Origin: Sphyrna mokarran
Taxonomy: Eukaryota
Length of the DNA: 64,000 nt
Reading direction: 5' to 3'
Assembly (NCBI GenBank): GCA_024679065.1
Contig: JAGIQG010000008.1
Span: 98,456,001-98,520,000, forward strand
Shown: one piece after another, positions 17,287 through 45,025 of the stretch
How the letters are laid out: the number at the start of each line of letters is the position of its first letter
Position numbering within the stretch: the first letter of the stretch is position 1
Program-made: the position numbers and the translations under genes
The notes under the pieces: model-generated
Told to the model about the DNA's origin: nothing
Seen by the model: only the letters and a program-made list of their open reading frames with translations
The model's database searches: none

Positions 17287-17580
17287 GGGCAGCACGGTGG
17301 CACAGTGGTTAGCAATACTTCCTCACAGTGCCAGGAACCCAGGTTCGATTCCCAATTTGGGTCTGTGTGGATTTTGCATGTTCTCTCTGTGTCTATGTGG
17401 ATTTCCTCCAGGTGCTCTAGTTTCCTCCCCAGACCGAAAGATGTATTGGTTAGGTGCACTGACCATGCTAAATTCTCCTTCAGCGTATCCTAACAGGCAC
17501 AGGAGCGTGACGATGAGAGGATTTTCATGATAACTTCATTGTAGTATTAACATAAGCCTACTTTTGGCTAACAAACTTTG
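17287..17580 (+). mobile_element. tRNA-derived SINE
   Basis: A box tggcacagtgg, B box ggttcgattcc, family 3' tail taacttcattg...aagcctactt. Confidence 0.85.
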
Positions 17581-18300
17581 CTTTACTTTACTGAGAAAAT
17601 GTGTAGAATCTGTCTTGGTTATGCCTACCATTTAATGTGCAATTTGTGGTGTGTTTGACCACAGTTTTCTTGTTAATGCTTACCTTATGTTAACTCTTGA
17701 TTTTAAAGAATAAGATAGATAGCATTGACTATTTGCATTGTTAATAATAATTTGTGAAAATTCTTTTTGTTTAAAGCCTTGGAATCTTCTGGCTTTATTA
17801 TCTTAGAAGGCAGCTGGCATTTCAAATTTAATCTACTTTACAACAAAGTTCCTGGATGTGGACTGGATTGTAGCAATAGGGTGTGCGATTGAAGTCCCCA
17901 GACTTATCAACTGGAAATTACTGAACTGACAATAACTCTCCTTCTGATGCTATAATATTGTTACTAAAACACTCAAACATCACACTTTGTTAACTACATT
18001 TTAATGGGGTACCAAGTCATAACTACTAAAGAACCACTCTATATTTGGATAATGTTAAACGTTTCCATTTTGATTAAAAAATGCCAAGTTTTTTGTTAAA
18101 TCTATGATATTTCAGCTTCTAAAGTGTATATCTGAATCTTTACTTCATCTATGTAAAAGTTAATTAAAAGTGAAGAATAATCAGTCCATTTTACTTCCTG
18201 GTTTTCTGTCTTTGGGAATACTTTGAAGTGATTGGCCATTTGTCCTGTTTGATAGCATTAATATTGCCCTGCAGCTGGGAAGTCCCTTACTTCATGCAAG

Positions 18301-20379: not shown

Positions 20380-20736
20380 AGATTCAAACATCAGAAAAGG
20401 TAAAAGCCATGCCATAAAGATTACCAGACCGTGGAAATCTTTTTTTTTGATATTAGAAAGGAGTACTTCAACTTTTCCACTGACCACAAAATTCAGACCA
20501 CAGATTCACAAAATCCATCATTTTAAGTATATCATTACAGAAGTTTCTGCGTTACGCAACACCTAGTTACAAGGGTGTTAATACAGTCTTAAATTCATTA
20601 CTTCCCAACAGAGGCATAATCATGCAGGAGCTCAGACATGGACATATCTAAAATACATTTGAACACATCACTGCATCATGTGTCATCCAGGTGTATCTCT
20701 GAGCTGTGTAGATCTGCACTGGGAAATTCAGCATAC

Positions 20737-20918
20737 CTCGATTTGATGTGCACGGGTAATTCTGTTCCGGTTTACATTTTCCCGAACTCTTTCACTCTGA
20801 CGAGTCCTTGCTATAGCACGGGTTCGTCTGGCAGATGGACGTAACCGGGAAGTAGTGGGTTCCTGTGCTGCATCAGCAACAAGAAAGGCAACCTCTTCAT
20901 CATCGATCTCCTCAACAT
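20737..20918 (-). CDS. PHRF1: PHRF1 exon (post-PHD, RTRAIARTRQSERVR)
   Basis: Acceptor ttctggttacag, donor GAG|gtatgc, phase 1-0; contains the PHRF1-like motif RTRAIARTRQSERVR. Confidence 0.93.
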
Positions 20919-21806
20919 CTGTAACCAGAAGCAAACAGAATTAACTGTTACTGCTGGAATGCCATTTCTGATCAACTTTGTTCCATTCACAAGCTTTAAT
21001 TTGGAGTAACGAGCAGTTCAGCTTGTTGCTCCTCTGGCTTTATTATCTTAGAAGATAGCTGGCATTTCAGTGCGCAGTGAGGCTGACCTGAAAGGACACA
21101 TCCTCAAGCAAACTTCATTTTCTGGGCTGATAAAATGTCTTATGCCTAATGATCAGTTAATTAGGACACAAACTGAATTACAACTTACATTCACATAGTA
21201 TCTTTAACATAGTAAAAAGTTTCCTATAGCTTTATTGAGAATACTTTTGCCAATTACAAATCCTATACAAAACATCTAATCCAGCATAAATTGGTCCATG
21301 AACACTACATTTTCTATTATTTAGAATGTGTCACAACATTCGATTTCCAAATACATTTAAGCGGCTGATATCTAATATAGGGCTTGAATTCTCTCATGTA
21401 TATAAGTTTAAAAAGTGATTTAAATTAAATGTTTAAGTTGATTAAAGAATATAATGGGGTAGATATAAATTATTTTGTCTTGTTGGGATGGTGTAAGTCC
21501 TGAACAAGGAGGCAAAATCTTCAAATTAGGGGTGAACAGGAAGTATTCCTTCATCCAAAGAACAACGGGAACCTGAAACTCAGGGGAGCCAACTGAATGT
21601 TTCAAAACTGAAATTGATAGATTAATGGAGTTATGATAATAATCAACAATGATCTTTTTGAATGGTACAACAGACCCAAGGAGCCAAGTGGTCTACTGCT
21701 ATATTTTGATATATTTGAAATGCAGGTTCATCAAAAAAAACACTTCAATTTAGCAGTTTTAATTGTGACATTATTGGGTTTTCAATAGATAATTTTGCAT
21801 GATATG

Positions 21807-21852
21807 GCCTCACTCCACAGAGCTCCCAGCCTCACTCCACAGAGCTCCCAGC
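21807..21852. repeat. Perfect 22-bp tandem duplication
   Basis: gcctcactccacagagctccca occurs twice in tandem. Confidence 0.9.
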
Positions 21853-21960
21853 ACCACAACCAGTCCAACATTGTGCACAGATTCCACACATAACTCAATA
21901 AGCTTAAAGTAAAGACTCTTTTCCCTCCAAAATATAAATAATATGGCTAATTTCATTTAC

Positions 21961-22052
21961 CATCTGTTGGATTGTTAACAGCACATTCTGGGCAAAACCA
22001 TTCTTCTACTGGAACAGTATCAAGGGCAGGATTGAGACAATCCAAGTGGTAT
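21961..22052 (-). CDS. PHRF1: PHRF1 exon, second half of PHD finger
   Basis: YHLDCLNPALDTVPVEEWFCPECAVNNPTD; acceptor ctctttctag, donor G|gtaaat, phase 2-1. Confidence 0.95.
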
Positions 22053-23927
22053 CTAGAAAGAGAGAGCATTTGAATCAGCAAAAACATTTATGAGAGAACA
22101 ATTACGGTTAAACGTGTAGACAAGTATAACCTTAAAGAATTAAAATATAAGCACCAGATGCTTTCTCTCCCAGAATGTGACTTCAATCTTCAGTCTCATC
22201 ACATAGAACAAAGGCAGGCGGCACATGGGGACATTATCATCTCCAGGTCTCCTATCATCCTGATCATCACTGGTTCATAAATCCTGAACTCCCTATCTAA
22301 AAGCACTGAGGAAACATCTTCAATGCTGCAGTTCAAAAAAGCTCTCAACACCATCCTTCCACTGCAATTAGGATGGGCAATGAATGCCCTCATCCTGAGA
22401 ATTAATTTTTTAAACCATGTTTTGAGTTTAGCTAGCAGTATTTAAAAGATGGTCAAGTATCAGCTGAGTGTAAAATAAATCAGTGTGTTTTACAACAGTG
22501 TCTGATGAACCATGTCTACTGTTGTAAGGGTGTGGAGGGAAGGAGGTAGTTTCCCATATACACTCATTAAGTAGATGCCTCTGCTGGGTTTGCAGGCATT
22601 TTTCAACCTCACTTTTTTCCCACCTGTTACTCAAGTTCATTTTCAGACAACTCAGGAGATGATTCCCTTTTCCTGGATAATACTTTTAAGATGTGAAAAG
22701 ATATGGATCAAATGGAGTTGAGGTACAATTTGCCCACAATCCAACTGAAAGATGAATGAGGCTCGAGGAGTTGAACTGCATCCTTTATTTCCCATGTTGC
22801 TATATCTGCTCTATATATCTGCTCAATTCAGGATTATTAGCTCAAATTCATTGTTTTAATAGAATGGTTATGTTTTAAACTGTTTCTTTAACATATGATA
22901 AAATGGAGTAATGAAAACTCATGTGATCTGCTTTGAATTCTGTCCAATGGCTATTGGCTGGTTATGGCATCAAGATCTAGGTCAAATGCTATTGAAATAT
23001 AAGTGCTAGGTTTTTGTTCTTGTTTTTGCAGACTCTGTCTCAAAGACTTCGAACAGGAACACAGACAGGAGAGTCTATCACAAAGAGAGAGACAACAGTC
23101 ACCATCAGCAGCAGGGAAAGAGCTGTTCTTGTTAGCTATCAGGTGGAAGGCTGATGGCAACAAGTCCTCTAATCAAGGAGGGGGAAGTATCTGAACTGAA
23201 AAACTCTGAAAGATTCATCCTGGCATGGCAGGGGGAAAGAAATCATTGTGGTGGGCTGTGCCGCTGGACGTCAGTTCAGGATTTCTTGGAAAACCAAGTT
23301 AAAGGATCTTCAATATTCACTGGATGTTATGATTTGATGAAAGGAGATGCAAGCACATTGGAAGCTGGGGATAACTTGCGATCGGGTCCTGTAAAGACTG
23401 TAATCCTGTGGAGAGCATGCCATAGCGTTGCAGTGTGAAGCTAGCGATCAAGTTAAGAAATTGACAAGAGATATGCTTTCAGTTGTATAATATGTTAGAT
23501 GCTTAATGTTTTTGATGCTGGTTGCACTTCGTTTGCGACAGTAAGATTTTAAAACCTGAAATTTTGTTGTGCAATTATTTTTGGTCAGTCAGTCTTTAAG
23601 GCACTGTAATAAATTCTAGGGTGAAAGCTACTTAGCTCCAAATTTCCTCACCTCTTATCATCACACCACCATCTCAATCTATTCTCTAATGACAAACTAG
23701 CCAATTATTCCAGTTTAACTTTATATCACATGTTAAACTGTAATTGTTTATTCTCTACGGATTCACCTAATGCACTAAAATAAATGTAAACTTCTACATC
23801 TTCATTTTAGGTCTCCTCGATTTTGGAACTTTTGAGATAAAATGTTATAAATGTTGAAGCAGAGGCAGGGTTCAGAGTGAAAAAGCCATGCAATAGGACA
23901 CGCGGAAAAATGCTGCAACATCGAGTC

Positions 23928-24188
23928 TGTTTATTTATCAGTGTTACAGGAGAGCTTACATTAACACTGCAATGAAGTTACTGTGAAAATCCCTTAGTTG
24001 CCACAATCCAGCACCTGTTCTGATATACTGAGGGAGAATTTAGCTTGGCCAAAGCATGTTTTTTAGACTGTAGAAGGAGACTGGAGTACCCAGAGGAAAC
24101 TCATGCAGAGTCAGGGAGAAATACAGACTTCACACACAGTGACCCAAGCTGGGAATTGAACCGGATCCCTGACTGTGCCACCATGCTG
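23928..24188 (-). mobile_element. tRNA-derived SINE
   Basis: Same family as 1216-1487 (shared tail ttacattaacactgcaatgaagttactgtgaaa). Confidence 0.75.
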
Positions 24189-25548
24189 TTCATAACATAT
24201 ATCACCTCAGATGGAACTTGAAACCAAAATCCCTGGCTTAGGAGGTTACTGCCTTATCCATCTGCACAGGCAAAATAGAATGAATGACAATCTTGTCTGG
24301 AAACTCCAATGGCTCACAATTTCTTGCATTTAAATTGACGTACACATATTGGGACTGCCATTTTGCTGAATTTCACTTCACCTATAGAGTCAAGGCCGAT
24401 TTCAGATCTCAAATAATAGGTAAGAGTGCTTGTGCAGAATCTTGCAGCAGAGCAATGATCCAAACAGCACAACTTCCATTATCAGGCAGAGCACTTCCTT
24501 CAGTGTCAGAGAATGCTGACACATGGCATAATGGGGCTGCATGACTAAATCATCTGCCTCCAGAAAATGAGAAAAGGGATATGATTGCATTCTCTCTTCA
24601 TTGGCAATGCAGTCATGGCAGTACTAGAATGTAAAAGGACGCTAGATATTAAAAATGTATTGCAATTCATTATTTGTCACTCAGTTCAGTCATTTTCAAT
24701 CCTACAAGTTTGTCATTGCAAAATATGTGGGTGAACTTTTAAGCTAACACACCTTCTTATAAACCGCAATACGAACAGAAAGCCGATCAGATCACAATTG
24801 AAAAACATGCCACACAAACTCTTGTTAAACATATAACTTTAACCAAAGATTTTCACCACTCATTATTATCACTATCTCATCACATCAAAAGTTATATAAT
24901 GACACTCAGAATTATTCCATTTTTTTTGAGCAAAATACTGCAATCTTTTCCCCAGATTAACTTTCTCCATTAAAACGTTACGGTGGGACATTTTAATTTT
25001 CAAACAGCACAAGCTGCAACTAACAGACCTCATCAGGAGTACTGTGTTCATTGTAGGATGCATTAGCCTTTAAGGAGGTGCAGCATACATTGACCAGAAA
25101 TATACCAGGGTTAAAAGGCTTAACTTATAAAGACAGAGACAAGAATGTTGCAATCTCTTACAGCTACAGTTCAATACCTAACACATTTCCCCCTCTCTTC
25201 AGTTCTGATAAAGAACCAAATAGACTCAAAACATTAACTCTATTTTCTTTCCCTATTGATGCTGCCCATTCTGCAGAGTTTTTCCAGCTTTCTCTGTTCT
25301 TGTTTCAGATTCCAGCAGCTGCAATATTTTGTCCCTTCTGGGGAACTATAGTGTATTACTTTTCTCCAGTCCCAGTCATCTGTATATTTTGGAAACACTT
25401 GGTTGTTTAGTGCTTAACAACATCAACTTGTATTTAAATAGCATCCTTACCTTAATAAAGCATCCCAATGCACTCACAGAAGAACTGTAAACCAAATATG
25501 CCACTCAGCCACACAAGAAGTTATTAGGTCAGATGACCAAAAGCTTGG

Positions 25549-25660
25549 TGTGGACCTCCACATCATGGCTACCACCGACATCACAAACTGCCGGTTCAAA
25601 GTGGAGAGGATCTCCAAGAAGATTATGCATATTGACACGGACATCAAGATTCTACCCATT
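25549..25660 (+). mobile_element. Short PLE fragment covering the probable ORF start
   Basis: ctccacatcATGgct matches the tail of the PLE mini-elements and continues MATTDITNCRFKVERISKKIMHIDTDIKIL; flanked by caaaagcttgg at 25538-25548 and 25661-25671. Confidence 0.6.
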
Positions 25661-26289
25661 CAAAAGCTTGGATAGAGGGTATATATTAAGGACTGCCTTA
25701 AGAAAGATGATGATAGTAGTAGTGAAGAAGTTTGTGAAGAATATTGCCGAGCTTAAGGCCTTGAAAACTGAAGTTACGATCACCAATGGTGAAGCAACTA
25801 AATTCAGGGAAGCACACGAGGCTAAAATTAGATATTTCATCTGTGGGATTGGAGGACATTGAGGATATGGAAAAATTTGAAAACATGGCCTAAAAATTTA
25901 AAATCAAGAGATCGCTTGCCCGGGAGTCAATACATTTCAGTGAGCAGAGACAATAAGGGAACAAAATTTGCTGCAAGTTAGACATGGGCAGCAGTGTTTT
26001 GGACGACTTCAGGTTTTTGACAACGTGCAACACCAACCAGGAGCAAGTTGGAATGATCAACTTTATGTAGTGTAGGCATAAATGAGGGTTTCAACTACAG
26101 GCAAGTTGGAACAGAAAGAGGTGAAATTGTGTGACTCTAAGGAGGTGAAAAAGCAAAAACATTAAAAAGGCCAGAAGCTCACCAAGGTTATCAAAAGACT
26201 CACTTAATCTCAGATTGCTGGCAGGAAAGGGATGAAGTCAGTAACTTGAAGTTTCGAGTGGGGACTGAAACAATGGCTTAAATGGTTCA

Positions 26290-27390
26290 CACAGTAAGAA
26301 GTCTGACAACACCACATTTAAGTCCAACTGATTTATTTGATAGTAAACTCACAAGCTTTTGAGGTTTCCCTTTTCGTAGGTGAATGGAGAGTTCTAGCCT
26401 CAGACAGTGCATATAACAGCAGACAGTTTACAGATTACTGATTAGAATGCGAATCTTTACACCTAACCTGCTATTCAAGTCTTAAAGTGGCTAACAATGT
26501 AAGTGGAAGGAGCACTGAGCACAGGTTAGACAGATGTGTATTGTCTCCAGAAAGTCCAGTTAGTGATGTCCTGCAAACCCAGGCAAGTCATGGAGGTTAC
26601 AGATAGTGCGACATGAACCCAAGATCCTTGTTGAGCCCGTGCTCACATGTGCCAAACTCGGCTATCAATCTTTGCTCAGCAACTGCGCTGTCATGTGTCA
26701 TGAAGACCGCCTTGGAGAATGCTTACCCGAAGGTCAGAGGCCTAATGCTCGTGACCACTGATGTGCTCGCCAACAGGAAGGGGTTGCCTGGTGATTGTCG
26801 AGCGATGTTCATTCATCTGTTGTCGTAGCGTCTGCATAGTCTCCCCAACGTACCATGCTTCGGGACACACCTTCTTGCAAGTATTAGGTAGACAACATTG
26901 CCGAGTTGCAAGAGTATGTACCATATACCTGGTGGATGGTATTCTCACATGTGATGATGTTATCCATGTCGATGATCCAACATGTCTTGCAGAGGTTGCT
27001 GTGGCAGGGTTGTGTGGTATTGTGGTCACTGTTCTCCTGAAGGCTGGGTAGTTTGCTGCGAACAATGGTCTGTTTGAGGTTGTGTGGTTGTCTGAAGGCA
27101 AGAAGTGGGAGTGTGGGGATGGCCCTGGCAAGATGTTTGTCTTCATCAATGATATGTTGAAGACTCCAGAGATGTCGTAGCTTCTCCACTCCGGGGAAAT
27201 ACTGGATGACAAAGGGTACTCTGTCACCATGTCCCGTGTTTGTCTTCTGAGGAAGTCGGTGCGGTTTTTCGCTGTGGCGCATCAGAACTGTTGATCAATG
27301 AGTCGAGCGCTATGTCCTGTCCTTATGAGGGGCTGGTGTTGTCAGACTTCTTACTGTGTTTACCCCATCCAACGCTGGCATCTCCATATT
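26290..27390 (-). mobile_element. Penelope-like element fragment with GIY-YIG endonuclease and inverted terminal segment
   Basis: Minus ORFs give QPCHSNLCKTC and CPEAWYVGETMQTLRQQMNEH (PLE Cys motif plus GIY-YIG); inverted ends at 26290 and ~27333-27360; TSD ttaaatggttca at 26278-26289 and 27392-27403. Confidence 0.88.
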
Positions 27391-28160
27391 ATTAAATGGT
27401 TCAAACAGCAAAATACTTCAGCAACATGCCACACCTACATTGGTGACATTGTAGACATTGCTGCCAAGGCCAGCATTTATTATCCAGCTCCAAGTGCCCT
27501 TAAGAAGGTGTTGAAGACTTGTCTTCTTGAATAAATAGCAAAGTTTACTCAGCCATTTTAATGACAGTTGAGAGGATAAAGGGAACTGTAAATCACTGCC
27601 TGAAAGGGTGGCATTTAAAATGCACTTGGATCTGCATTTGAAGTGCTATAACCTACAGGGCTATGGACCAAGAGCTGGGAAGTGGAATTAGTCGGATTAC
27701 CATGTAGCCTTATGTTTCAATCACATTGCTGTGGATCTGGAGCCACATATGGGCCAGACCGGGGTTATTGATGGCAGATTTCCTTCCCCAAGGACATTAA
27801 TGAACCAGCTCAGTGTTTACAACAATGAAGTTTGTTCGTGAATACCAGTACAGATGCAAGCTTTTTCATAGGATCCCCACAGTACAGCCATTCGGCCCAT
27901 CAAATCTGCACTGATAACAATCTCACCTGGTCCTATCTCCGGAAACCCATACATATACTCTGCTAATTCCCTCTGACATTTAGGAACAATTTAGAATGGC
28001 CAATCAACTTAACCCAGAATCGAACCCAGTCTCTGATGCTGTGACGCAGCAGTGCTAACACTGCGCCCAAAATATTATTTGATTAATTGAATTTAACTTG
28101 TGGGATTTGAGCACATGTTTTTGGAACATTAGCTCAGGCCTCTGGATTACTAAACCAGTC

Positions 28161-29107
28161 TGTTATCATCCTTGACTGGATGCCCAGGATTTTGGCAAGA
28201 TCCAGTTAGGGATTGAATTCATTTTGTTTAAAGTAGACAAAATTTGAAACTCAAAATGAATAAAGTCACAAGACTCCATGGGTTCTGAACAAACAAAAAT
28301 AAATTTTACTATACAAGGTCAGATATCTTGTACTTTTAAGATTCAGAGATAATATGAGGTACATGTAAATTAACAGAAAGTGTAATAAACGAAAGATGCA
28401 ATCAAGACAGAGTCCATGGATTTATCAACACCCACCCAGATTTCAGTATGAATTAATCAATCTCACAAACTCTCTTTCACAAAGAATTCTAGTCTTCATC
28501 TTTGAAGATCTAACCAAGGAATTCCCTCCAAAGGTCACTCCAATTCAGGCAGCATCAACTATGCTCACCTCACAAGGTTTTGATCTCTAAGATTCAACTC
28601 CCCAAGATTCCTGAGTATACAGTCAAGCAGCAACACAACCTCAAATCTTTGGCTGCGCCAAGCAGAACACTGCTGCTCCAAAGAGGCGCCTCTGCCCTGA
28701 CAGCCTTCAGCAAAGAGTTATCAACCTTTGACTGCTCCCTTTGATCTTCAGGGCTTCTCTAGAGCCTTCTCCAATTTAATTCTGCAACTCATAGTCTTTC
28801 CTTTATTTGAAACCTTTTTAACTGAACTCAGACATCTTCCCGTCTCCATCCCATCTCTGGCTCTTTTACTTTGAGACTTTCCTTTATCCCCTCTCCCTAT
28901 TCCCTGCCTGTAACACTTCTTCTTGATGGTATATCTTCCAGTCACCTCCAGGTTTTCACACTAATTTCATCTGCACATATGGAGCCAATTCCCTGTCTGC
29001 ATGTGTGCTAAAGTTCTGAGGCCCATCACAAGTTGGTGCCCCCAATCACCACTCTCAACATTAAGGTAAATTTATTAATTTAACAGAACAAGTCACATAT
29101 GTTAACA
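28161..29107 (-). mobile_element. Possible LTR (LTR-retrotransposon remnant)
   Basis: Termini TGTTA...TAACA; purine tract aaagggg immediately upstream on the minus strand; no TSD seen. Confidence 0.4.
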
Positions 29108-29169
29108 TACCCCTTTGAGATAATGGATGACTATCTTTTTAAAACATACTAAGGGAAGTAAATAGTGGT

Positions 29170-29367
29170 ATATTGGGAATTTTGGATGTACAAAGGGATC
29201 TAGGTATCCTAGTACACCAATCAATGAAAGGTGAGAGGCAGGCACAACAAGCAATTAGGGAGGCAAATTTTATGATCTTCATCCCTGTTCAGAAACAGGG
29301 ATGTCTTATTGCAACAAACAGGGTATTGGTGAGATCACACCTGGAATATTGCATGCAGTTTTGGTCT
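29170..29367 (+). mobile_element. Host CR1 fragment, left part (resumes at ~31664)
   Basis: QRDLGILVH...LVRSHLEYCMQFWS breaks at ttttggtct and continues at ctccttacctaag (31664-32085). Confidence 0.75.
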
Positions 29368-31192
29368 GAGAGCATTACAGCACAGTACAGACTTGTCGGC
29401 CCGCTATGTTGCGCCAACTGTGAAACCAATCTAAAGCCCATCTAACCTATACTATTCCAATATCATATGATTATCCAGTGACCATTAACGTTGACGAATC
29501 CATTACTGTTGCAGGCAGGACATTCCCTTACTACTCTGAGTAAAGAACCTACCTCTGATATCTGTCCTATATCTATCACCCCTCAATTTAAAGTTATGCC
29601 CCCTTGTGCTAGCCATTTCCTTCCTAAAAGAAAAAGGCTGTCACTGTCCACCCTATCCAATCCTCTGATCATCTTGTATGCCTCCAATAGGTCACCTTTT
29701 AACCTTCTTCTCTCTGACCAAAACAGCCTCAAGTCCCTCAGCCTTTCCTCATAAGACCTTCCCACCATATGAGGCAACATCATGGTAAATTTCCTCTGCA
29801 TCCTTTCCAATGCTTCCAAATCCTTCCTATAATGCAGCCTTTATTTGAAACCTTTTTAACTGAACTCAGACTTCTTCCCGTCTCCATCCCATCTCTGGCT
29901 CTTTTACTTTGAGACTTTCCTTTATCCCCTCTCCCTATTCCCTGCCTGTAACACTTCTTCTTGATGGTATGTAAAACTGTACACAATATTCCAAGAGGGG
30001 CCGCACCAGAGTTTTATACAGCCGCAACATGACCTTATGGCTCCGAAACTCAATCCCTTTACCAATAAAAGCTAACACACCGTACACCTTCTTAACAATT
30101 CTATCAACCTGGTTGTCAACTCTTAAGGGTCTATGCACATGGACATCAAGATATCTCTATTCAATCACACTGCCAAGTAACTTACCATTAGCCCAGTATG
30201 CTGTATTCCTGTACTCCTTCCAAAGTGAATCATTTCACTCTTTTCCGCATTGAACTCCATTTGCCACCTCTCAGCCCAACTCTGCTGCTTATCTATGTCC
30301 TTCCGTAACCTGCAACATCCTTCTGCACTATCCACAACTCCACCAACTTTGGTATCATCGGCAAATTTACTAATTTCCATGTCCTCATTCAGATCATTTA
30401 TAAAAATGACAAACAGTAGTGGCCCCAAAACAGATCCATGCGAAACATCACTACTAACTGAATTCCAGGATGAACATATCTCATCAACCACCATCCTCTG
30501 TCTTCTTACAGCTAGCCAATTTTTGATTCAACCGCTAAATTGCCCTCAATCCCATACCTCCATATCTTCTGCAATAGTTCACCATGGGGAACTTATCAAA
30601 TGCTTTACTGAAATCCATATTCACCACATCAACTGCTTTACCCTTATCCACCTCTTTGGTCACCTTCTCAAAGAGCTCAATAAAGTTTGAGGTACAACCT
30701 ACTCTTCACAAAACTGTGTTGACTATCCCTAATCAAATTATTCCTTTCTAGATTATTATAAATCCTACCTCTTATAATCCTTTCCGAAACTTTGCCCATA
30801 ACAGATGTAAGGCTCATTGGTTTAGGGCACTCAATGTTAAAATGGTGGCGTAGGCTCGTTGGGCCGAAGGGCCTGTTTCCCGTGCTGTATTGTTGCCTAT
30901 AATTACCAGGGTTGTCTCTACCCCCCTTCTTGAACAAAGGGACAACATTTGCTATCCTCCAGTCTTTTGGCACTATTCCTGTAGACAACGATGACCTGAA
31001 GATCAAAGCCAAAGGCCCTGCAATCTCTTCCCTAGTCTCCCAGAGAATCCTAGGATAAATCCAATCCGGTCCAGGGAACTTATCTATTTTCATACTTTCC
31101 AGAATAGCTAACATCTCCTCCTTACCAACCTCAATCCTATCTAAGCTAATAGCTTGCATCTCAGTATTTGCCTCGACAACATTGTCTTTTTT
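29368..31192 (-). mobile_element. 5'-truncated CR1 LINE nested in an older CR1, itself carrying two insertions
   Basis: Minus ORFs with GPDWIYPRIL, WRIANVVPLFKKG, GSVLGPLLFVIFINDL, KFADD, LVRPLLEYC; CR1-type 3' UTR near 29370-29410. Confidence 0.93.
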
Positions 31193-31464
31193 GATAATGG
31201 ATTGACAGCTGGTCTCAGTAATTATACTATCATTGTACATGAGGCAGGGGATTTTACCAGTGCTCAGTGCACAAGACACAACATGAGAACTGCCGACTGT
31301 GAAACTGTCAATTGTTGTAAAAACCCATCTGGTTCACTAATGTCCTTTAGCGAAGGAAATCTGCTGTTCTTAGCTGGTCTGGCCTACATTGTGACTCCAG
31401 AGCCACAGCAACGTGTTTGACTCTCAGCAGCCCTCTGAAATGGCCAAGCAAGTCACTCAGTTCT

Positions 31465-31660
31465 GATGGGCTTCCTCTGGGTGCTCTGGTTTCTTCCAAC
31501 AGTCAGAAAGCACTGTTTAGATACATTGGTCATGCCTGTCCCTCCATTTACCTGAATGGGCACCGGAGTGCAGCAACCAGGGAACCCCCAAAGCAACCCC
31601 ATTGCAGTGCCAATGCAAACCCACCCATGACACTGATAAACTTTGTGTCACAAGTAAGCT
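31465..31660 (+). mobile_element. 5'-truncated tRNA-SINE with T>C hypermutated tail and a short inverted tail copy
   Basis: Aligns to SINE copies at 17287 and 50418; see findings. Confidence 0.75.
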
Positions 31661-32829
31661 CACCTCCTTACCTAAGAAAGAGGGAGTGCAGCGAAGGTTC
31701 TCTATGCTGACGGCAGGCATGGCAAGACTGTCCTAAGAAGAGAGTTTGGCTCTCTGGACCTGTAGTCACTAGAGTTTAAAAGGAGAGGAGATCTGATTGA
31801 AACGTGTAAAATTCCAACATGACCGGACAGACTAAATGCAGACAGGATGTTTTCCTTGGCAGCAGAATCTAGAACCTAGGAACACGGTTAGGGTATTGGA
31901 CAGACCATTTAAGACTGAGATGAGGAAAAATTCTCTACCTCAGAAGACTATCAAGGCCAAGTCACTGAATGTATTCAAGAAAGAAACAGATAATTTTTTT
32001 ATGTTTTTAAGGGGAGATAGCAAGAACATGGCATTGAGGTAGAGGATCAGCTTTGAAGGGCCAAAACGTTTACTCCTGTTCCTAATATTTATTTTCAAGA
32101 AGTTTATTGTAAATGCTCCAGTTTCTTTGAGAATTTAAATCATGATATTATAATCACATCATATATAGACAAACATGTATACATTATATGGGCAAGTCTA
32201 TCACTGAGATAGAAACTATTTAACCCATCTTTCTTGAGCTACAGCTTTTCCTATCACTGCATTTGCCATGATCCTATAGATTATGTTACCACAAAAAAGA
32301 TCATAATGAGAAGTCAGAATGGTTGCACCAGGCATAGGCACTATTTGCCTATGCAAAGTTCCAGAAAAGCCTTTCGTTATTCCTTGCTATAAACTAGTAA
32401 CTGTTTTTATAAAAATATAAATCTAGGAAGGGAAAGTTTGTACCTTTCAACTTTTTGGAGGCAAAAGCAGGCTTGCATTCTGTCTTTCCACAAATAATGC
32501 AAAACTTAAATACAATCTATTTTAAAAATCATGCATCTGCACACACTTCTTGTTGCTTGTTCATTATAAATTACCATATACGTTTTTATAATGGCAGTTG
32601 CCTGTAAGTTTATCACATTGCAATTCCTGCCTTGCCCCTCAGTGAATTCACAATAATCATCTGAGTGCAATAATGGCACGTAAAGTTTACATAGCAGTTT
32701 CCTTCATAATTGTGCCAGTAGAATTTAATCATAAAAATGCCCAAGAAATTGCATAATTTCTTAAATAGAGAAGCACTGACTCAAACTAGCCAAAATGCAA
32801 CTAACCTCCCTCTCCCCTCCCCAACATGG

Positions 32830-33400
32830 ATGGCACAGTGACACATGGATGGCATAGTGGCTAGCAGTACCAGGGGCTTCAGTTCAATTCTGGCCTTAGG
32901 TGACTGTCTGTATGGAGATTGCGTATTATTCCCATGTCTGTGTGAGTTTCCTTTGGGAACTTTGATTTCTTCCTACACTCCAAAGTTTAAAACAGAGTTG
33001 AGGAGGAACTTTTTCACTTAAAGGGTGGTGAATCTCTGGAATTCTCCGCCCATTGAAGTAGTGGAGTCTACCTCGTTGAATATGTTTAAGTCACAGGTAG
33101 ATAGATTTCTGATAGACAAGGGAATTAAGGGTTACGAGGAGCAGGTGGGAAGGTGGAAGTGATCCACTTCAGATCAGACATGATCTTGTTGAATGGCGGG
33201 GCAGGCTCGAAGGGCTAGATGGCCTACTCCTATTTCTTACGTTCTTATGTGCAGATTTAGGTTGACTGGCTACACTAAACTGCCCCTTAGTGTCAGCAGG
33301 ATAAACATATGGGGTTACAGGAATAGAATCTGGGTAGGATTGTTGCCGGTGTAGCTCGATGGGCCGAATGGCTTTCTTCTGCCTTGTAGGGATTCTATCT
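32830..33400 (+). mobile_element. tRNA-derived SINE interrupted by a CR1 3' fragment (~32986-33248)
   Basis: SINE body ...cacactccaaag resumes at atgtgcag after a CR1 tail ending cctactcctatttcttacgttctt. Confidence 0.7.
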
Positions 33401-34593
33401 GATGCCACTTTAACTGAAAATTATATTAAACTTTGAATTTGCATGCATAACACCGCTGTAGATGAACTAATATTAGAAGTCGAATATATCCATGCATTCC
33501 CTAGTGGTAAATTTCCATTCCTGCCGTAACAGTTTTTGGTCACATTTCTTAGTTCAACATTGTGACATTGAAAACATTGTAACCAGTCTGAACGGGAATT
33601 TTCCATGTAAACAAGTCACAATGGTGCTGTAGTTTCAGACGACAGCCAGTAAGGTGGCATCGTTGCCTCAGCATATCATGTTTCATTGCATTCCCTAACC
33701 CAGCAGCAACTGATAAGCTGATGATTTGTATTTGTAGGTAAACGGGTAATTAAATAGTCTGGTGTCCTGCATATTAATTTTTAGCTTATGCCCATCAAAT
33801 GGGCTTCAACATTCAGTTGGTCAGTGGGAATTAGAACTTACCAGACAGAGATGTTTAGCTGATAAGGATTCAGTCACAAGATTTCTTTGTCCTGGCCCCC
33901 TAGATCCCTCAGCTGACCTCCCTGGAGACATCTTCCAAGGCCAAGTAAAAACGTCACCTGTAGGAGCCCCTAATTCATTAATCTCAGTAACTGCCTCTAG
34001 TTGAATGATTTGACAGTTTAATCAAGGTGAAGCTAATTGGGAAGTTATTCTTGTTAAAACTGTGGATATCAAGGAGCAACAGCAGCTAATTGAGTAAAGT
34101 GGCATTATGGATCATGTGGATTTTCACATAGTTGGGTTCAGGCAGAAATATAAAATGAGCATTAATTCAAAGAGGCCTGATCAGTCGTGAACCATGCGCT
34201 CAATAACTGTAATGTGTGAATTATCAGGGAGATACTTGCAATTCACCAAAGTGTTATTGTAAGTGATAGTTATTACTCTATGTTTCATATCCTGAATATC
34301 AACATTTTTGAACCCCATTATTTTAAGGAAGAATTTTTAAATTTAGAAGAAATCCCAACTTTTAATACATTCACTAGCTGAAGCTGTGTTACTACAAATA
34401 TTGCACAAAGATCAAACAACAGAAGACAGGGAAAGAAGAGATTCCCTAAAACCGACAGCAGTACATTTTCGGGCCATTATAGAGATAACGTTTGGATGTA
34501 CTGAAAATCAGGCTGTCATCGTAACAAAATCAATTTGAACCATCACTGTTTCTAAATACAGCTTTAAGTTATCATGTTCAGCTGATTACATAC

Positions 34594-34715
34594 CCCGAAT
34601 CACAACCGTCACAGAGGAGAAGGCTATCTTCCCGGTCACTTCGTCCACACACCTCACAGTTTGTCACGTCCTCTTCCTCCTCACCATTGCCTTTATCAGG
34701 GTTTTGGACTGGAAT
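34594..34715 (-). CDS. PHRF1: PHRF1 exon, first half of PHD finger
   Basis: IPVQNPDKGNGEEEEDVTNCEVCGRSDREDSLLLCDGCDSG; acceptor cttttgaag, donor GG|gtatgt, phase 0-2. Confidence 0.95.
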
Positions 34716-35228
34716 CTTCAAAAGAAGCGGAATTTGTAGTAGTTAAATGTTTGACTTATTAAAGCTACCATTTTCCTTTCCCTTCCCTTCAATGACACCA
34801 GACATGTGACACCAGGGAAGACTAGGGAGAGGTGAATTGTGATTTCCACTCAATTGAGTTTGGCTGTAAATGGGCCAATGCGTGTGTCACAGTTGGTAGT
34901 AATAACGCCAGGAAGTGCACTACATTCACTTGCACAATATAAGCAAGAATAGTTTCAATAGACCTTGTTAACCTCAAGGATTATTATTAGGCATTTCTGA
35001 TAGCTAGAGCTGGACTGGTAAAGTCAAGGTCATCTATGATGCCCTCAGAGCATTCACTGTCCAGGGTTAGACATCTGTGTAAAGTGCCAGGAGATTCCTA
35101 CCACACAGGGCGTTGTCTGTAACCCCATCCACCCTCAATTCCAAACCACATCACCTTGATCATTAGCAGGAGGGGAAAATTAAGTCTTTTTGTTTTTATA
35201 CAAGCATGCTTATGCCATTCCAACTCAC

Positions 35229-35312
35229 CTTCTTTAAAACTGTCCCTCCAAAACGTGTGCGAACACAGATATGTTTGAAGACGATTCGATCAACAGGACA
35301 CGAATTGGCATT
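35229..35312 (-). CDS. PHRF1: PHRF1 exon, end of RING finger
   Basis: NANSCPVDRIVFKHICVRTRFGGTVLKK; acceptor ctgaaacag, donor AAG|gtgagt, 84 bp, phase 0-0. Confidence 0.95.
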
Positions 35313-35499
35313 CTGTTTCAGAAATAACATTTATAAACCATCATAGGAATTTCTTTTCCTTTGCAAAATTGTGAGCTAATTCATCTGCTTTGAACTTTAT
35401 GACAGAACTTATAGATGGTTAACATCACGTGGCAGGTAGCTTTATAGGACACCCTCAATGCCTGCACTTCCAGCATGTGTGAAGTAAAGTAAGATAGAA

Positions 35500-35905
35500 T
35501 TTACATTTAATAGCTTCTTTCATAACATCAGGATGTGCGAAGGTGCAGTCACTGTTGCAATGTAGGAAATGCAGCAGCCAACTTGTACACACTAAGATCC
35601 GTAAACAGCAATGTGATGAATTCATTTGACTTGGTAATGGTGGTTGAGGGATAAATATTTTTTAGGTTAACAAGGGAAATCCCCTGCTCTTCTTTGAGTA
35701 CTGCATGGAATTTTACATCAGCTGAAGGAGCAGGCAGAACCCTGGTTCAATAACTCATTCAAAACACAACACACTTACAGCATGTCCAGCACCACCACAA
35801 TACCCTGCTGAAGTGACAGCCTGGATTATCTGACTGCCCTGGAGTGGACACTGAAACTATAATCTTCTGACTCAAGGCAAGACTGCTCCCCACTGAGGCA
35901 TGACT
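35500..35905 (-). mobile_element. Deu/SacSINE-like SINE
   Basis: cagtcactgttgcaatgtaggaaatgcagcagccaa and ttctgactca motifs; related copies at ~53290-53670 and ~60820-61450. Confidence 0.55.
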
Positions 35906-37369
35906 GACATTCTAAAGGGAAATACCATTGCCGTATTTCTTTCAAATTTTTAAGGAGAGGAACAAACGTGAAAAGAATAATCTCTGGCTGACTACAAATG
36001 CATCAAACATCTCTTTCTTGCTGTGAATATCATTTAAGGTTAGGTGCAATCACTTATAATTGATCAGGATTACTATAAAAAATAATTTTATTTGAAAATA
36101 TAAAATACACCAGTTAGTATAACAGCAAGAACGTTTTCTCAGTGGCACTTCCAATTTTATCAGATTTTTCTGTAATGGGAACTTGAAAATTAGTTGATCT
36201 ATACTAACATCCCATCACTGGTGCAGAAATACATTTGCAGTACTGTATAAAAGAGTTCTATCGCTGAATCACTAAAAAAGTAGTAAATGTTGTGCAAATC
36301 TACAAACCCTTAACCACCATTTACTACAGTTATCCTTCTGCCTCATTGTTGAAGGTATCACTGGAATGCAAAATGGTTTTCTCTCTGGGTTCCACACATA
36401 CATCATTTGGTTTGGGAAAACTTTACTTAAGTTTTGTAGATTGCACACTTGAAAAAAAGGGAACTAAATCAAAACTTAGCTTAGCAAACAATAAACTGCT
36501 TTTTTTTAAAATCATTAAATTCAATTCCTTTAGCACAACCATTCATACAACAGATACAAAAAGCAGACAGCAATGATGAACAGTAAATATATAGTGATAT
36601 TCACCAAAGTTCATTTTGGTAACGATGCTCTTTTTGATGTCTATTCGTGATTATTATTTGAATAGAGAGGCCATGACTTCAAAGCTGGCAAATGACACAA
36701 AATCCAAGAATGTACAAGCAGCAAGGAGAATAATAACCAACTTCACACGATATAGACAGACTATTGAAATGGCCAAATGTAGAGAAATCTATCAAGTCAT
36801 CTTTATGACTCTCATGGATGCGAGTGTTGCTGGCAAGGCAGCATCTGTTGCCCATCTCTATATGCCCTTGAGAAGATTGTTGTGCACTTCTTGAACTGCC
36901 TCATTCCATCTTGTGAAATTATACCCAGAGAGTTCCAGGATTTTGACAGAGCCAGTGGAAGAACCGGGATATAGTTTCAAGTAAAGATGGTATATGGCTT
37001 GGAGGGGAACTTGCAAATGATGATGTTCCTATGGGTCTGCTGCCCTTGCCCTTCTAGTAGTTGCAGGTTTGGAAAATGATGTTAAGAGATGCCTGGCGAG
37101 TTCTGTAGAGCATCTTGTATGTGGTACTCACTGCTACCACTGTGCATCTATGATGAATGTTTAAGGTGATGTATTGGATGCTGATCAAAAGGGCTGCTTT
37201 TTCTAAATGCTGTCGAGCTTTGAATATTGTTGGAGCCGCACTCATCCTGGCAAGTGACGAGTGTACCATTATACTCCTGACTTGTAGATAGATGCTGAAT
37301 TGGGGAAATCAAGACATGAGTTACTCGCCACTGAATTCCCAATCTCTGATCACCTCTTAGAAGCACAGA

Positions 37370-38850
37370 AAATCAGAGCAGAAATAGTTCATTCGGCTTT
37401 GAGTCTCCTCTGCTACTCAATTTCGTGGCTGATGTTATCTTAATACCATTCTCCCCTGCTCTTCCCATATATTTTGATGCCTTTAGAGTCTAGAAATCTA
37501 TTAATTTCTGTGATATGGCCTCTGCAGCCTTCAATAGTACAGAATTCCAAAGCTTCATTATCCTCCAAATGAAGGGTTTATCCTCCTCTCCATCCTACAT
37601 GGCCTACCCTTTATCTTGATACTATAACCCCTTGTTCTAGACCAGCCTCTCCATCTCCACAACTTGAAGAAATATCATTCGTGCATCTAATCTGTCCAAT
37701 CCTGTCAAAATTTTATACGTACAGCAAGATTCCCTCTCATACATTCAAACTCCAGTACATACGTGCTTAGTCGATCCAATTTCTCCTCATATGACAATTG
37801 TGCCATCCCAAGGATAAGTCTGGTGAACACCTTTGCTGCACTTCGTCTATGACAAGTATATCTTTAGCCAAGGAGACCAAAACTGTGCACCATACTCCAC
37901 TGGTGGTCTCACTAAGGCCCTTTACAGTTGCAACAAGACATCCTTGTGCCTGTACTCAAGTCCTCCTGCAATGAAGGCCAACATTCCATTTGCATTCTTA
38001 ACTATATGTGTATCTGTTTACTTTTAGTGATTGTATACAAGGACACTCTTGGTGCAGCAACGTTTCTCAATCTATCACTATTTAAATAATACTTGCCATT
38101 CTGTTTTTCCTACCCATTTGAATGATCTTACACTTACCAACGTTATACTGCATCTGACCTGAATTTGCCCACTCAATTTGTCTAAATCGCCTGAAAGCCT
38201 CTTAACATCCTCATCACCACTCTCACCATGTTTCATATCTTCAGCAAACTTGAAAATATTATATTTTGTTCGCTCACCCAAATTATTGATTTATTTCATG
38301 ATCACTTAGTTTTGAGCTGTGACTCTCTAGTTCTAGATTCATCAACAGGAAACATCCTTTCCACATTCACAATATCAATACTCCTCAGGATGTTACATGT
38401 TGCCTCTTACTCTTCTAAGCTACACTGGATAGATAGAAGCCTAACCTTACCCATAAGCACCTTGCATTGCAGGTGGTTGCCTAGTAAACCTCTCTGAAAT
38501 GCCTCCAATGCATTTTAATTCTTACTTAAGTAAGGAGATCAATACTGCATATATTACTCCAGATGTGATCTCACCAATGTCCTACATAACTAAACAATAA
38601 CTACTTTTGCATTTAATTCTCTTCGCAATAAACAATAACATATTAGCTTTTCGAATTACTTGCTTTAACTGCACACTAATCTTTTGTGATTCATGCACTA
38701 GGACATCCAAATCCCACTATAATCTCTCATGATTTAGGTAAAATGCTTTCAAAATGCGCAATTTTGCATTTGCCCACATTATACTCCATTGTCAGATCTT
38801 ACTCACTTAATCCTTGTAGCCTCCTGTCTTCTTCACAACTTATTTTCCTA
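37370..38850 (-). mobile_element. Two adjacent decayed CR1 3' fragments
   Basis: Minus strand KFAED at ~38240; two LEY..QFWSP-like regions at ~37875-37900 and ~38535-38560. Confidence 0.65.
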
Positions 38851-39372
38851 CGTGATTCTAGACCACAGAAATGGAATTGACTCCCCAACTTCCCTTTGAA
38901 ATGGAGAAGCAAGCCACTAAGTCCAAAGGTAGTTAGGGATTGACAACAAATGCTGGCTTTGCTGGTGATACCCACACTCCACAAAAGAATACTAAAAGGT
39001 GATGAGGGGAATTTCTTCTACATAGCCAAGTGCTGCAATCTGGAACATTCTTTTTAAAAGAGGTGAGGGAGAGGATGCATAAGCAGATTCAGTAGTAACT
39101 TTCAAAAGAAAATTAGTCTAAAAACTTAAAAATGAAACCACAGCAAGACAACGGGGAAACAGCACGGGAATGGAACAATTTGGATAGTTCTTTTAAAGGG
39201 CCAGCATTGACATAATTAGCCTAACAGCCTGCTTCTGTGCAGTATGATTCTATAGTCTTCAGTGGTCCTCTCAGAGGCATTCAGTCTTAGTGAAGGTGGA
39301 TTAGGGATCCTTTCAAATAGTTGACATTTAAAATAGTTCAACAGGCTACAAAGCCTGGTTCACAGCACTCAC

Positions 39373-39569
39373 CTTTGACCATTCAAGAATACAATCAAGG
39401 CAAAAATAATGTGCACAGCTTTCTGGAGTTCCAATTGCCTGATCCCGGAAAGTATTCAGACAGATAGGGCAGTTTTCAGCCTCATCATCAGAGCTGCTAG
39501 CCCACTTCCTTCCAGAACTGGCCTTCTCTGTGTCATTTCCCTCCATAGCCTCCTCCTCATCATCATTAC
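39373..39569 (-). CDS. PHRF1: PHRF1 exon, N-terminal part of RING finger
   Basis: Encodes CPICLNTFRDQAIGTPESCAHYFCLDCILEWSK; acceptor tttgtcccaag, donor AAG|gtgagt, phase 1-0. Confidence 0.95.
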
Positions 39570-41876
39570 CTTGGGACAAAAGAAAAAATGTTTTGTTTTA
39601 AACATACTCAATGGCTTTTCCACTCTAACCCCTCAGATTGTAAATTTGAATTACACAAAGCATGATAGGGGAGACAAGTTTATGATGTAAATTTACATAA
39701 CACTTCTAATGTAATAAATCAGCCAAGCTGCTTTACAGGGGCGTTACCAGAATTTAAAAAAAATCAAAATGCTGGAAAAATGAAGTAAAAACAGAAAATG
39801 CTAGAGATATTCAGCAGGTCTGGCAGCAACTGTGGAGAGAAACAAATTTGACATCTCAGTCTATAACATTTCATCCTGTCCTTTGTCTTCACAGATGCTG
39901 CATGACCTACTGAATATTGTGGCACTTTCTGCTTTTATTTATAAAATAGCTTTGAAACTGTGTTACATAAAGAGACATTAGGGAAATTAAGCAAAAGCTT
40001 GGTCAAACTTTACAGATCATTTTAAACAGGAAACAGAGAAATTGCAGAGTTTAGGTCTTAGGCTGTTGAAGATAGGATCACCAATGAAAAATGAACTCGC
40101 CAGAAATGGAAATCTCAGATTGTTGTAGGGGTGCAGCAGGTTTTTATAGAGATTGGGAAAGGTAAGGCCATGGAAGTATCGATACATAAAGATGAGAATT
40201 TTAAATTTGAGACATTGCCAGGAACCAATGCAGGATCAGCATGCACTTTATTATCTTTAGGCACAACTAGATCTCCTGGCCGACCTCACAACTCTGCCCT
40301 CTGTAAACTTGAGCTCATCATAGGGGCAGCAGTTTTAGATAGTCTTAAGTTTACAGACAATGGAAGTTGGGAGATCAGCCAGGTGTATCTAGAGATAATA
40401 AAGACATGAATAAGGGTTTCACGGGCACAACGGAACAGCAACATAATCAAGTTACAATGGGATACTGCTATGGGCATTCCAATGTACAGCAGAGAATTGT
40501 ATGTAAAATCTTCCACATTAGAAACATTTCAAAAGTGAATTGGATTAAAAATTCAAAAATAAAACCACAGTAAGATTATGTGGAAAGAGCACGGAAACGG
40601 GACTAATTGCATAGCTCTTTTAAAGAGAAAGCATTGACACACCTCCTTCTGTACAAAATTTACACTAGGATAATCGAGACAAATTAGCAATGCATTCAAA
40701 TGGTAGAAATTTAAAAATGGAAGGTAGACAAAAGAATGAATGCAGATTCAAGTTTTGAAGAAAAGCTTGAATTGCAAGAATACACACAAGTGCAGAGAAA
40801 GATAAGAGAAGATTTAAAAAGAAGTTTTTAAAAGATAATAAATAGTCTTGATAAAGTACATAAGGAAAGGAAGTTTCTTGCAGTTTGTGGAATAAGTAAC
40901 TAGAAGAGGTCTGGTGACAATTGCTCTTGCTTTCAGTGCATTTGAACATGGTGTTAGCTGGTCAGTGAAAACAGCTATTATTGTAATAAATAAGGTCAGC
41001 GCATAAGATGCTACAATTGACAATTTTGAAATTAATGGTTTTCAAATTTTTGGATATTTTAAACATGGCTGAAGTGGAGGATGTCTACACAGAATGCAGA
41101 GACATTGAATGGCCCGATGTTAAGAGCTCAACTTCCAACAACTCCATGTTGTGTGGTCCTATACCAGGGCAGTCCTGGTCTGTGTTAAGTTATCCATTTG
41201 CAGCTTGGGTACGGATGGGCTTAAAAGTCCACAGGTTAGGATGAGGGGAGAGAAAAATATTTTAAGAGTCCCTGGATCACCAGTGACCTTTACAAGAACA
41301 GAATATGCGTACATGCTTGCACAAACAGATAAGAGCAGGGACAGGTGCTGACCCTACCCATTATTCAATCCACATACAGCAATATCTAGTTGGTTAAAAC
41401 ACTACAACCAGGGCCACCTCTTCTTTTAGGAATCTATCCTTCAGGGAAGGAGGGTTGAGGAAAAAAAAAACAAATTCCAAGGCTTGAAACTTTATTAAAA
41501 TATAGTTTTTGCAAGGGAAGTAACTTACCTGAATAATGCTTCATCCTGTAGATTTTGAATGTCTTCCAAATTAACAAGATTAATAGTTCTTATAAGATCA
41601 ACAATGAAGCATGCGCTTATGAATTCAACCAAATCAAATCTTACAAGGTAGTGAACCATTTCCCTGCTTTTTGACTAAGATCAAACCTGAGATCAGGTAT
41701 AATGCCTGCTTTTGTTAGCTTGGCTTTAGAATGTCTTTTTTTATGGGAACCATGAATTGGATGCAGTTTGAATTTGAACTGGTTTTTGGAGCAAACAAAG
41801 AGATAGATTCAAGAATTGCTCTGTCCACTCCATGCATTGCCTTTGTGACCAAGAATGGAAAAGACATAAACTATAC

Positions 41877-42020
41877 CTTCCTCTGCGTCCTCATCTTCAT
41901 CCTCTTCATCATCCTCATCATCTAAATCATCATCTTCTGCCCCTTCTCCATCTTCATCATCATCGTCGTCGTCGTCATCTGTACCATCCTCGTCTACATC
42001 ATCTTCGCTACCAGATTCCT
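41877..42020 (-). CDS. PHRF1: PHRF1 acidic (D/E-rich) exon
   Basis: Acceptor ttttgttag, reads EESGSEDDVDEDG...DAEE, donor G|gtatag, 144 bp, phase 1-1. Confidence 0.9.
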
Positions 42021-42104
42021 CTAACAAAAGACCACACATTCAGAATTTTAAAAGCTAGCTTGAAGTTAGACTTTCGCTCCACAATTCTTAGGGAATGGGC
42101 CATG

Positions 42105-42768
42105 TTATATGTCCATAGGTCTCTTAAATCTGCTCCGCAAGTGGAGGATGTGGTCAAAAAGGCATATGGTGTACTGGCCTTCACTAATAGAGGAACTGAG
42201 TTTAGGAGTCGGGAGATAATGCTGCAACTTTATAAGACCCCACTTGGATTATTGTGTGTAGTTCTGGTCGCCTCACTATAGGAAGGATGTGGAAGCTATT
42301 GAGAGGGTGCAGAGGAGATTTACAAAGATGTTGCCTGGATTGCGGGGCATGCCTTATGAAGATAGATTGAGAGAGCTAGGTCTCTTCTCCCTGGAGAGAT
42401 GAAGATTGAGAGGCGACCTGACAGAGGTTTATAAGATGTTGAGAGGAATAGATAGGGTGGATTCTTGGAGGCTATTTCCCAGGGCTGAAATGGTCGCTAC
42501 GAAAGGAACAGGTTTAAGGTGCTGGGGGGTAAGTACAGAGGAGATGTTAGAGGTAAGTTTTTCACTCAGAGGGTGGTGAGTGAATGGAATCGGTTGCCGT
42601 CAGTGGTGGTAGAGACGAACTCGCTGGGGTCTTTTAAGAAACTTCTGAATGAGTATATGGGATTTAATGGGATTGGGAGTTACAGATAGTTCTATGGCCT
42701 GGTACGTATAGATATGATCGGCACAACTTTTGGGCCGAAGGGCCTGTTTGTGCTGTACTGTTCTATGT
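42105..42768 (+). mobile_element. 5'-truncated CR1, same subfamily as 18301-20379
   Basis: Closely similar to ~19715-20379, including the 3' tail gggccgaagggcctgtttgtgctgta..gttctatg. Confidence 0.92.
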
Positions 42769-44736: not shown

Positions 44737-45025
44737 ACCAATTTCCTCCCTAGCGTCCCACAACGTTCTGGGATATACCTCACCGGGTCCCGCAGATTTA
44801 TCTATCTTGACTTCTAGCATCTCCTTTTCTGTAATATGTACACTACTCAAGACATCAATATTTAATTCCACAAGTTTCCTAATGTACATGCTTTTCTCAG
44901 TAAATACTGATGAGGAATATTCATTTAAGATCTCACCCATCTCATGTGGATCCGAACATAGATTATCTTATTGACCCTTAAGAGGCCCTACTCTCTTCCT
45001 TGTTACGCTTTTGCCCTTTATGTAT
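44737..45025 (-). mobile_element. Internal CR1 ORF2 fragment
   Basis: MGEILNEY.SSVFT...KIDKSAGPGEVYPRTLWDAREEI. Confidence 0.8.

Follow-up and report, generated by a model that had tools for sequence, protein, structure and literature searches.

A single SINE copy in the window, the 64,000-nucleotide stretch of the Sphyrna mokarran genome analysed here, carries a cluster of T>C substitutions. The cluster is genuine, inherited and single-copy, and it represents a burst of A>G change on the strand antisense to the element. We propose, with a probability of about 0.7, that ADAR edited an antisense, folded-back RNA and that this RNA was then reverse-transcribed into the germ line. Support for the edited-RNA reading comes from the strand of the host gene, a rare fold-back arm beside the tract and inverted pairs at other loci whose two arms are changed on the same strand. 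The first-pass annotation had also proposed that an edited RNA was reverse-transcribed and fixed in the germ line, and the results support it; of the three outcomes that it named as speaking against the idea (a C-rich subfamily or ancestral state, an assembly artefact and an unskewed substitution spectrum), none was found.

The target copy is the 3′ two thirds of a tRNA-type SINE (31462..31640, plus strand), covering about positions 110–290 of a 294-nt consensus built from 36 genomic copies; the 5′ part is missing. To its left lies an older SINE of a second family (31304..31461, plus strand), which lacks its 3′ end where it meets the edited copy, and to its right a LINE fragment (31679..31947, plus strand) that starts just behind the inverted arm described below. 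The older SINE is putatively SacSINE1-like, the LINE fragment putatively CR1-like and the target SINE putatively HE1/V-SINE-like. HE1 is given as the shark V-SINE in a published table (PMC3747384). In an alignment to consensus positions 219–283, the tract 31571..31626 (56 nt) showed T>C at 15 of 21 consensus T residues (71%) and A>G at none of 16 consensus A residues (Fisher test for T>C versus A>G, p = 6e-6). Read on the plus strand, the changed sites are 31571, 31578, 31585–31588, 31594, 31598, 31599, 31610, 31611, 31616, 31622, 31625 and 31626, which correspond to A>G on the minus strand. About 13 T>C changes with few others had been counted by eye in the stretch quoted by the first-pass annotation; exactly 13 are present at 31585–31626, and the ones at 31571 and 31578 are additional. 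The remaining changes in the tract are G>A at 5/16 sites and one transversion, and two of the five G>A lie directly 3′ of a new C, that is, TG>CG>CA. Hypermutation is limited to these bases: consensus 110–218 is essentially unedited in this copy (T>C at no more than 3 of about 29 sites, in a poorly aligned region), and the flanking SINE and LINE fragments are not hypermutated, with substitutions at background.

The dominant change is thus T>C on the SINE sense strand and not G>A, the mark by which APOBEC DNA-edited retroelements are recognized, and A>G on the element's sense strand, which would mark ordinary target-primed retrotransposition, is absent. In ordinary retrotransposition the sense RNA is the template, so that A>G would appear on the sense strand; the template here should therefore have been an antisense RNA, and the T>C on the sense strand excludes normal retrotransposition of SINE RNA as the route. 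Any return to DNA would thus have followed an unusual, still unproven path, and the exclusion of retrotransposition is a point that the earlier account lacked.

Background rates were obtained from 43 tail-bearing copies in 600 kb of unselected DNA and were 3.95% for T>C and 3.7% for A>G, compared with 10.3% for C>T and 13.3% for G>A outside CpG, which agrees with the earlier remark that ordinary decay runs in the opposite direction to T>C. The maximum number of T>C changes per background tail was 3 (n = 43), and five sister copies in the window have 0–2 at the tract positions. When per-site rates were taken from 147 unselected tails, the probability of at least 15/21 T>C was 1e-17, or 1e-10 with the rates multiplied by three, in a genome that holds roughly 200,000 tail copies as extrapolated from the 600-kb sample; the skew of the spectrum is far beyond chance. 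The exact C-rich 19-mer occurs in 2 places in 2.77 Gb, as against 18,863 matches of the T-rich motif, and a C-rich 31-mer, searched genome-wide with 3 mismatches allowed, matches the target only. Together with the tail-pattern search described below, these results argue against the C-rich tail as a multi-copy subfamily or an ancestral state.

Contigs from two sequencing runs place the change in germ-line DNA and show it to be neither RNA nor an assembly artefact. The X1 contig, possibly from the source sample itself, covers 31475–31983 without a difference over 509 nt. The X2 contig, covering 31475–31709, has 14 differences and 2 gaps, which makes X2 a relative at about 6% divergence. Of the 15 tract C residues, no fewer than 12 are common to the window and X2, so that the cluster is present in this relative too. 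X2 has C>T at seven places in all; of the five listed, one is a cluster site (31626). Runs X3 and X6 gave no coverage of 31585–31613 at 86% similarity. At 31626–31627, the window reads CA and X2 reads TG, for which the simplest ancestor is CG, arisen from T>C and decayed in two opposite ways. The presence of the cluster in both sequences and this inferred CG ancestor indicate that the cluster is older than their split.

On the minus strand, the changed A residues of the target by 5′ neighbour were U 5/5, A 6/7, C 2/7 and G 2/2, so that U- or A-preceded sites were changed at 11/12 and C-preceded sites at 2/7. The neighbour preference described from the letters, with A>G mostly after U or A and several A residues after C unchanged, was borne out, the low rate after C being partly confounded by CpG reversion to T. 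In general, ADARs disfavour A after G, and reverse transcriptase reads inosine as G. Both 5′-G sites of the target, in ADAR's least favoured context, were changed, a point absent from the earlier reader's account; an edited A follows both sites, which may ease the 5′-G rule. Avoidance of 5′-G by ADARs has been reported in all animals surveyed (PMC5625713). The 5′-G sites were changed at 8/14 in the seven tail patches, 3/18 in body patches and 0/4 in the A>G-rich copy L095. Pooling of nine T>C-rich copies, with selected sites included, gave U 33/49, A 34/63, C 12/64 and G 11/32. CpG reversion, together with selection on TA/TT sites in the other copies, confounds the difference between U+A and C (p = 1e-7); 5′-G sites were changed less often than U+A sites (11/32 versus 67/112, p = 0.015).

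Directly behind the SINE lies an inverted 19-nt copy of its 3′ end (31645..31663, minus strand; consensus 265–283, 17/19 identical by alignment). The first-pass annotation had reported an unmutated 16-bp inverted copy; the inverted copy itself stands, but it is longer and contains two changes from the consensus, which on the minus strand are one C>T and one A>G. In minus-strand RNA, 31645–31663 pairs with 31615–31633 in a predicted 19-bp stem with an 11-nt loop (−23.5 kcal/mol, z −3.7, 0/200 shuffles), and the stem spans only the last third of the 56-nt tract. According to the alignment and fold prediction, the loop is the A/T tail of the SINE (31634..31644), in which the T-before-A sites 31634 and 31637, the best ADAR context, are unchanged, whereas all five such sites in the tract are changed. 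Only 1/5 A residues in the arm is changed; since the arm retains unedited letters, the edited tail was not its template. A 15/16 inverted tail match within 100 nt downstream was found in the target only (1/191 tail copies).

The edited strand appears to be the transcribed strand of a host gene. A 1192-residue frame at 3314–6892 on the minus strand shares 93% identity with a protein from Mustelus that bears the name PHRF1, and 13 further exon matches lie between 52404 and 320, so that the gene occupies 320..52404 (minus strand, 14 exon matches in total); one exon of 3.4 kb codes for an RS-rich region. The target SINE lies in a GT-AG intron (22058..34589, minus strand) between the two PHD-finger-coding exons. 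Since PHRF1 is on the minus strand, the A>G strand is that of the PHRF1 pre-mRNA, antisense to the SINE; this concordance is 1/1 locus, with 50% expected by chance. The same intron contains a full-length sister SINE in the opposite orientation (23930..24206, minus strand), 7.2 kb from the target, which is a possible long-range pairing partner and is itself unedited (A>G 1/51).

Three other repeats were observed in the window. Upstream of the PHRF1 start, an inverted repeat of about 500 bp (56193–56696 and 57142–57642) has arms that are 97.8% identical and 445 bp apart, with 7/11 substitutions being A/G or T/C. A 133-bp direct repeat (28800–28932 and 29838–29970) is 99% identical over a spacing of 1 kb. 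The repeat at 19656–20383 is 90% identical to copies in L187 and L010, which are themselves 97% alike, and on this similarity it is a member of a young family.

Further T>C-rich copies were found with degenerate patterns. The tail pattern, which demanded 4/7 T>C, gave 9 matches, seven of them SINE tails including the target, and this raw count is not above chance (4.2 expected); in the six non-target tails, however, T>C was found at 22/84 sites not used in the selection, versus 3.1 expected. The body pattern gave 9 matches, 6 of them in SINEs, and L211 and L218 each had 5/19 T>C at unselected sites (p = 0.001). Both have a body patch with an unedited tail, which rules out that patches are confined to the first-copied 3′ end. 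L090, L212, L214 and L219 stood at background and L213 was marginal, whereas L087, L088, L055 and L215–L217 were excluded as chance or non-SINE matches. The resulting set of nine T>C-rich copies was picked after the data had been seen. Their patches use differing subsets of sites and have no other diagnostic change in common, although some C positions coincide, and these differences in site indicate independent events. Truncation at the 5′ end was found in 7/9 T>C-rich copies versus 8/68 comparison copies. No upstream LINE sequence common to the tail-only copies was seen by eye, and no parent locus with the same junctions as the target or L092 was found among the best candidates scored. At five other loci, a Pfam search of the 240 longest of 1,153 unmasked frames, over 60 kb each, gave no host exons, and base skews were uninformative.

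Inverted complementary SINEs within 60 nt were found for 2/8 of the other T>C-rich copies (L092 and L218), compared with 0/175 background copies (p = 0.002). At L092/L113 (1486–1934; G000:C1104 near 87.38 Mb), an inverted tail fragment with 13/23 T>C stands 55 nt before a full inverted copy, and the tail of the latter has A>G at consensus 245, 246, 262 and 267, on the same genomic strand and facing the patch, so that both show A>G on the plus strand. This partner was also found independently, as 1/24 matches of the mirror (A>G) search. L218 (1121–1672; G000:C1548 near 33.74 Mb) is a SINE nested in an inverted one, and A>G falls on the same strand in the two: the patch is in the antisense arm, while A>G in the sense arm affects 4/37 sites, located opposite the patch, which is weak alone. 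L218 is also the best locus for testing post-insertion rewriting. An inverted partner within 60 nt is lacking in 6/9 T>C-rich copies, in five of which none was seen for the tail within 1.5 kb. The borderline copy L006 has an inverted partner 384 nt away, a distance reached by 18/175 background copies, and the inverted neighbour of L010 overlaps its patch little and was left uncounted.

The mirror A>G pattern gave 24 matches (23 SINE, with L107 excluded) versus 4.9 expected. Outside the motif, only L095 is clearly hypermutated (16/29), and the pooled value was 46/775; free hairpin sites were changed at 7/207, versus 8.6 expected. Except for L095, these copies were not counted as hyper-edited, as their sites outside the motif show no excess. 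L095 (1357–1548; G000:C1437 near 22.66 Mb) is a 5′-truncated copy with A>G on the SINE sense strand (21/38), at sites whose 5′ neighbours cleanly follow U, A > C > G, and judged by the edited strand it would be a classical edited-RNA insertion. L093–L116 show an excess of paired AA>GG doublets at consensus 245–246 and 267–268 (23 versus 4.9 expected) and none elsewhere, with consensus 268 changed in 15/23 versus 0/141 background copies. Single doublets among the 18,863 motif matches were not in excess (TT>CC 9 and AA>GG 23, versus about 7 and 28 expected), and the copies with them were at background outside the motif. The paired doublets are unexplained; they might stem from tandem mutation or from light editing of the hairpin at the SINE's own 3′ end. 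Consensus 217–284, which contains the target's tract, is predicted to form a long stem-loop of its own, and several 5′-truncated copies begin near the base of this stem.

A change in one direction on one strand, in a short patch of about 70% density, after 5′ U or A and with pairing partners, points to adenosine deamination in double-stranded RNA; judged by pattern only, ADAR is the likely enzyme. Dense editing of repeats occurs in the RNA of a cartilaginous fish: 200,171 hyper-editing sites, 81% of them in repeats, were reported in elephant shark brain (PMC5625713). The events at the target might have been as follows. The PHRF1 pre-mRNA strand holds the antisense SINE tail and the inverted sense arm, which are predicted to pair. 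The arm would formerly have been about 65 nt long, with a stem spanning consensus 219–283 that left the loop and the remaining SINE sequence single-stranded, and ADAR would have converted most of the paired A residues to inosine. A LINE reverse transcriptase or Pol theta, primed at a DNA break, may then have reverse-transcribed the antisense arm together with the loop and 19 nt of the opposite arm, with inosine read as G; in the process, the older SINE on the left would have lost its end, and the arm on the right its remainder. By the comparison with X2, fixation would have preceded the split from the relative about 6% diverged, and the new CpGs then decayed. In mammalian cells, Pol theta has been reported to repair DNA on RNA templates (PMC8195485).

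Whether the RNA came from the PHRF1 intron itself, with repair in place, or from a fold-back pair elsewhere, with insertion of the patch, stands at about even odds. In-place origin is favoured by the PHRF1 strand match, the nested L218 and the short patches in otherwise normal full-length copies, and the excess of 5′ truncation among T>C-rich copies fits an event at the time of insertion better. The more specific proposal that ADAR-edited intronic pre-mRNA was written back into its own gene, through RNA-templated repair at fold-back SINE pairs, is tentative and rather less likely. Several observations count against ADAR acting on RNA: 5′-G is not avoided in the tail patches, the present arm pairs with only 19/56 nt and the longer arm is inferred, the intron's inverted sister SINE is unedited, 6/9 copies have no abutting partner and the nine were chosen post hoc.

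Three other explanations were weighed. The view that no special process took place, the cluster being a subfamily trait or ancestral C-rich state, a product of gene conversion from a copy of that kind, plain decay or a fault of assembly, draws on the C positions that also occur in other copies, and we consider it very improbable: the C-rich 19-mer is found in 2 places against 18,863 T-rich matches and the 31-mer in the target only, the other patches are different site subsets without another diagnostic change in common, the probability is about 1e-17 per copy, and X1 is identical over 509 nt while X2 has the cluster. A polymerase error burst is improbable too, if somewhat less so. In this explanation, a LINE reverse transcriptase placed dG opposite U (through wobble or low dATP), or a Pol eta-type enzyme left A>G at WA near a break. 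Reverse transcriptases misincorporate by wobble and at low dATP, and Pol eta produces clustered A>G at WA sites. Our literature search found no paper directly on either mechanism as the source of such a burst. An error burst explains both the sense T>C and the 5′-G changes in tails, and in the T run at 235–238 the changes rise towards the following C (2, 3, 4 and 5 of 8 copies), as in slippage. However, conversion of 71% with 0/16 A>G and one transversion is far above the error rates typical of these enzymes, the body patches and L095 follow the order U>A>C>G, and the inverted partners are unexplained.

Deamination by ADAR of the DNA strand of an RNA:DNA hybrid, either first-strand cDNA on SINE RNA or antisense DNA in an R-loop, is the strongest of the alternatives and still unlikely. 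It would give SINE-sense T>C directly, as APOBEC gives G>A, without the need for an unusual RNA, and it fits the 3′ position, the 5′ truncation (7/9 versus 8/68) and the patches without partners. Full-length ADAR2 was shown in vitro to edit the DNA strand when RNA and DNA form a matched 90-bp hybrid, but only three sites reacted there, far below 71% (PMC5389660). Moreover, the body patches of L211 and L218 with unedited tails are unlike an insertion intermediate, the explanation predicts neither inverted partners nor A>G on the partner's sense strand, and the host-gene co-transcriptional R-loop model, as presented in bioRxiv 2020.02.11.943845, predicts the opposite strand for PHRF1. Editing of an antisense folded-back RNA remains our preferred reading.

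An antisense SINE scar on the host pre-mRNA strand, beside fold-back partners, cannot come from the retroelement's normal cycle. It points to germ-line RNA-templated repair or to ADAR acting on hybrid DNA, both of which have long been debated, and we found no inherited example in the papers searched. If in-place write-back were true, one could count the patches as fossils of heritable information flow from RNA to DNA in a vertebrate, by a path other than retrotransposition. Our literature search also turned up no report of SINE copies hyper-edited on the antisense strand and fixed in a genome.

Several known systems resemble parts of this picture. Dense A>I clusters with an inverted neighbour in non-coding RNA are typical of pre-mRNA inverted-repeat hyper-editing (PMC5625713, PMC2873906), which as described there is RNA-only and strongly avoids 5′-G, whereas the changes here are in DNA and avoid 5′-G only partly. 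Routes from RNA editing to DNA at a transcribed locus are offered by ADAR as a DNA mutator (PMC5389660; bioRxiv 2020.02.11.943845) and by Pol theta repair (PMC8195485); the available text of these sources concerns in vitro or somatic events at sparse sites, and no dense inherited tract is described in it. The APOBEC "DNA editing" fossils of Knisbacher and Levanon, which were screened in LTR retrotransposons only, are likewise clustered, one-directional and strand-biased deaminase scars in single genomic copies, but they are sense G>A from C>U in the cDNA of LTR elements, as opposed to sense T>C in a non-LTR SINE (PMC4866542). Among non-LTR elements, ADAR1 did not edit L1 RNA in one reported cell assay (PMC5224506). 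The nearest likeness is found in avian retroviral DNA, where, according to a review, ADAR-type A>G is fixed in the U3 of a Rous-associated virus and in an inverted repeat of avian leukosis virus (PMC12925331); there, as here, about half or more of the A residues in or beside an inverted repeat are changed to G and fixed via reverse transcription. In those viruses, the element's own sense genome is edited within its normal cycle, whereas here a SINE within a host intron is changed on its antisense strand, with fixation in the germ line across species. The fixation of A>G via the cycle of a retroelement is thus known, and what is new here is the antisense strand, the match with the host intron and the association with a fold-back.
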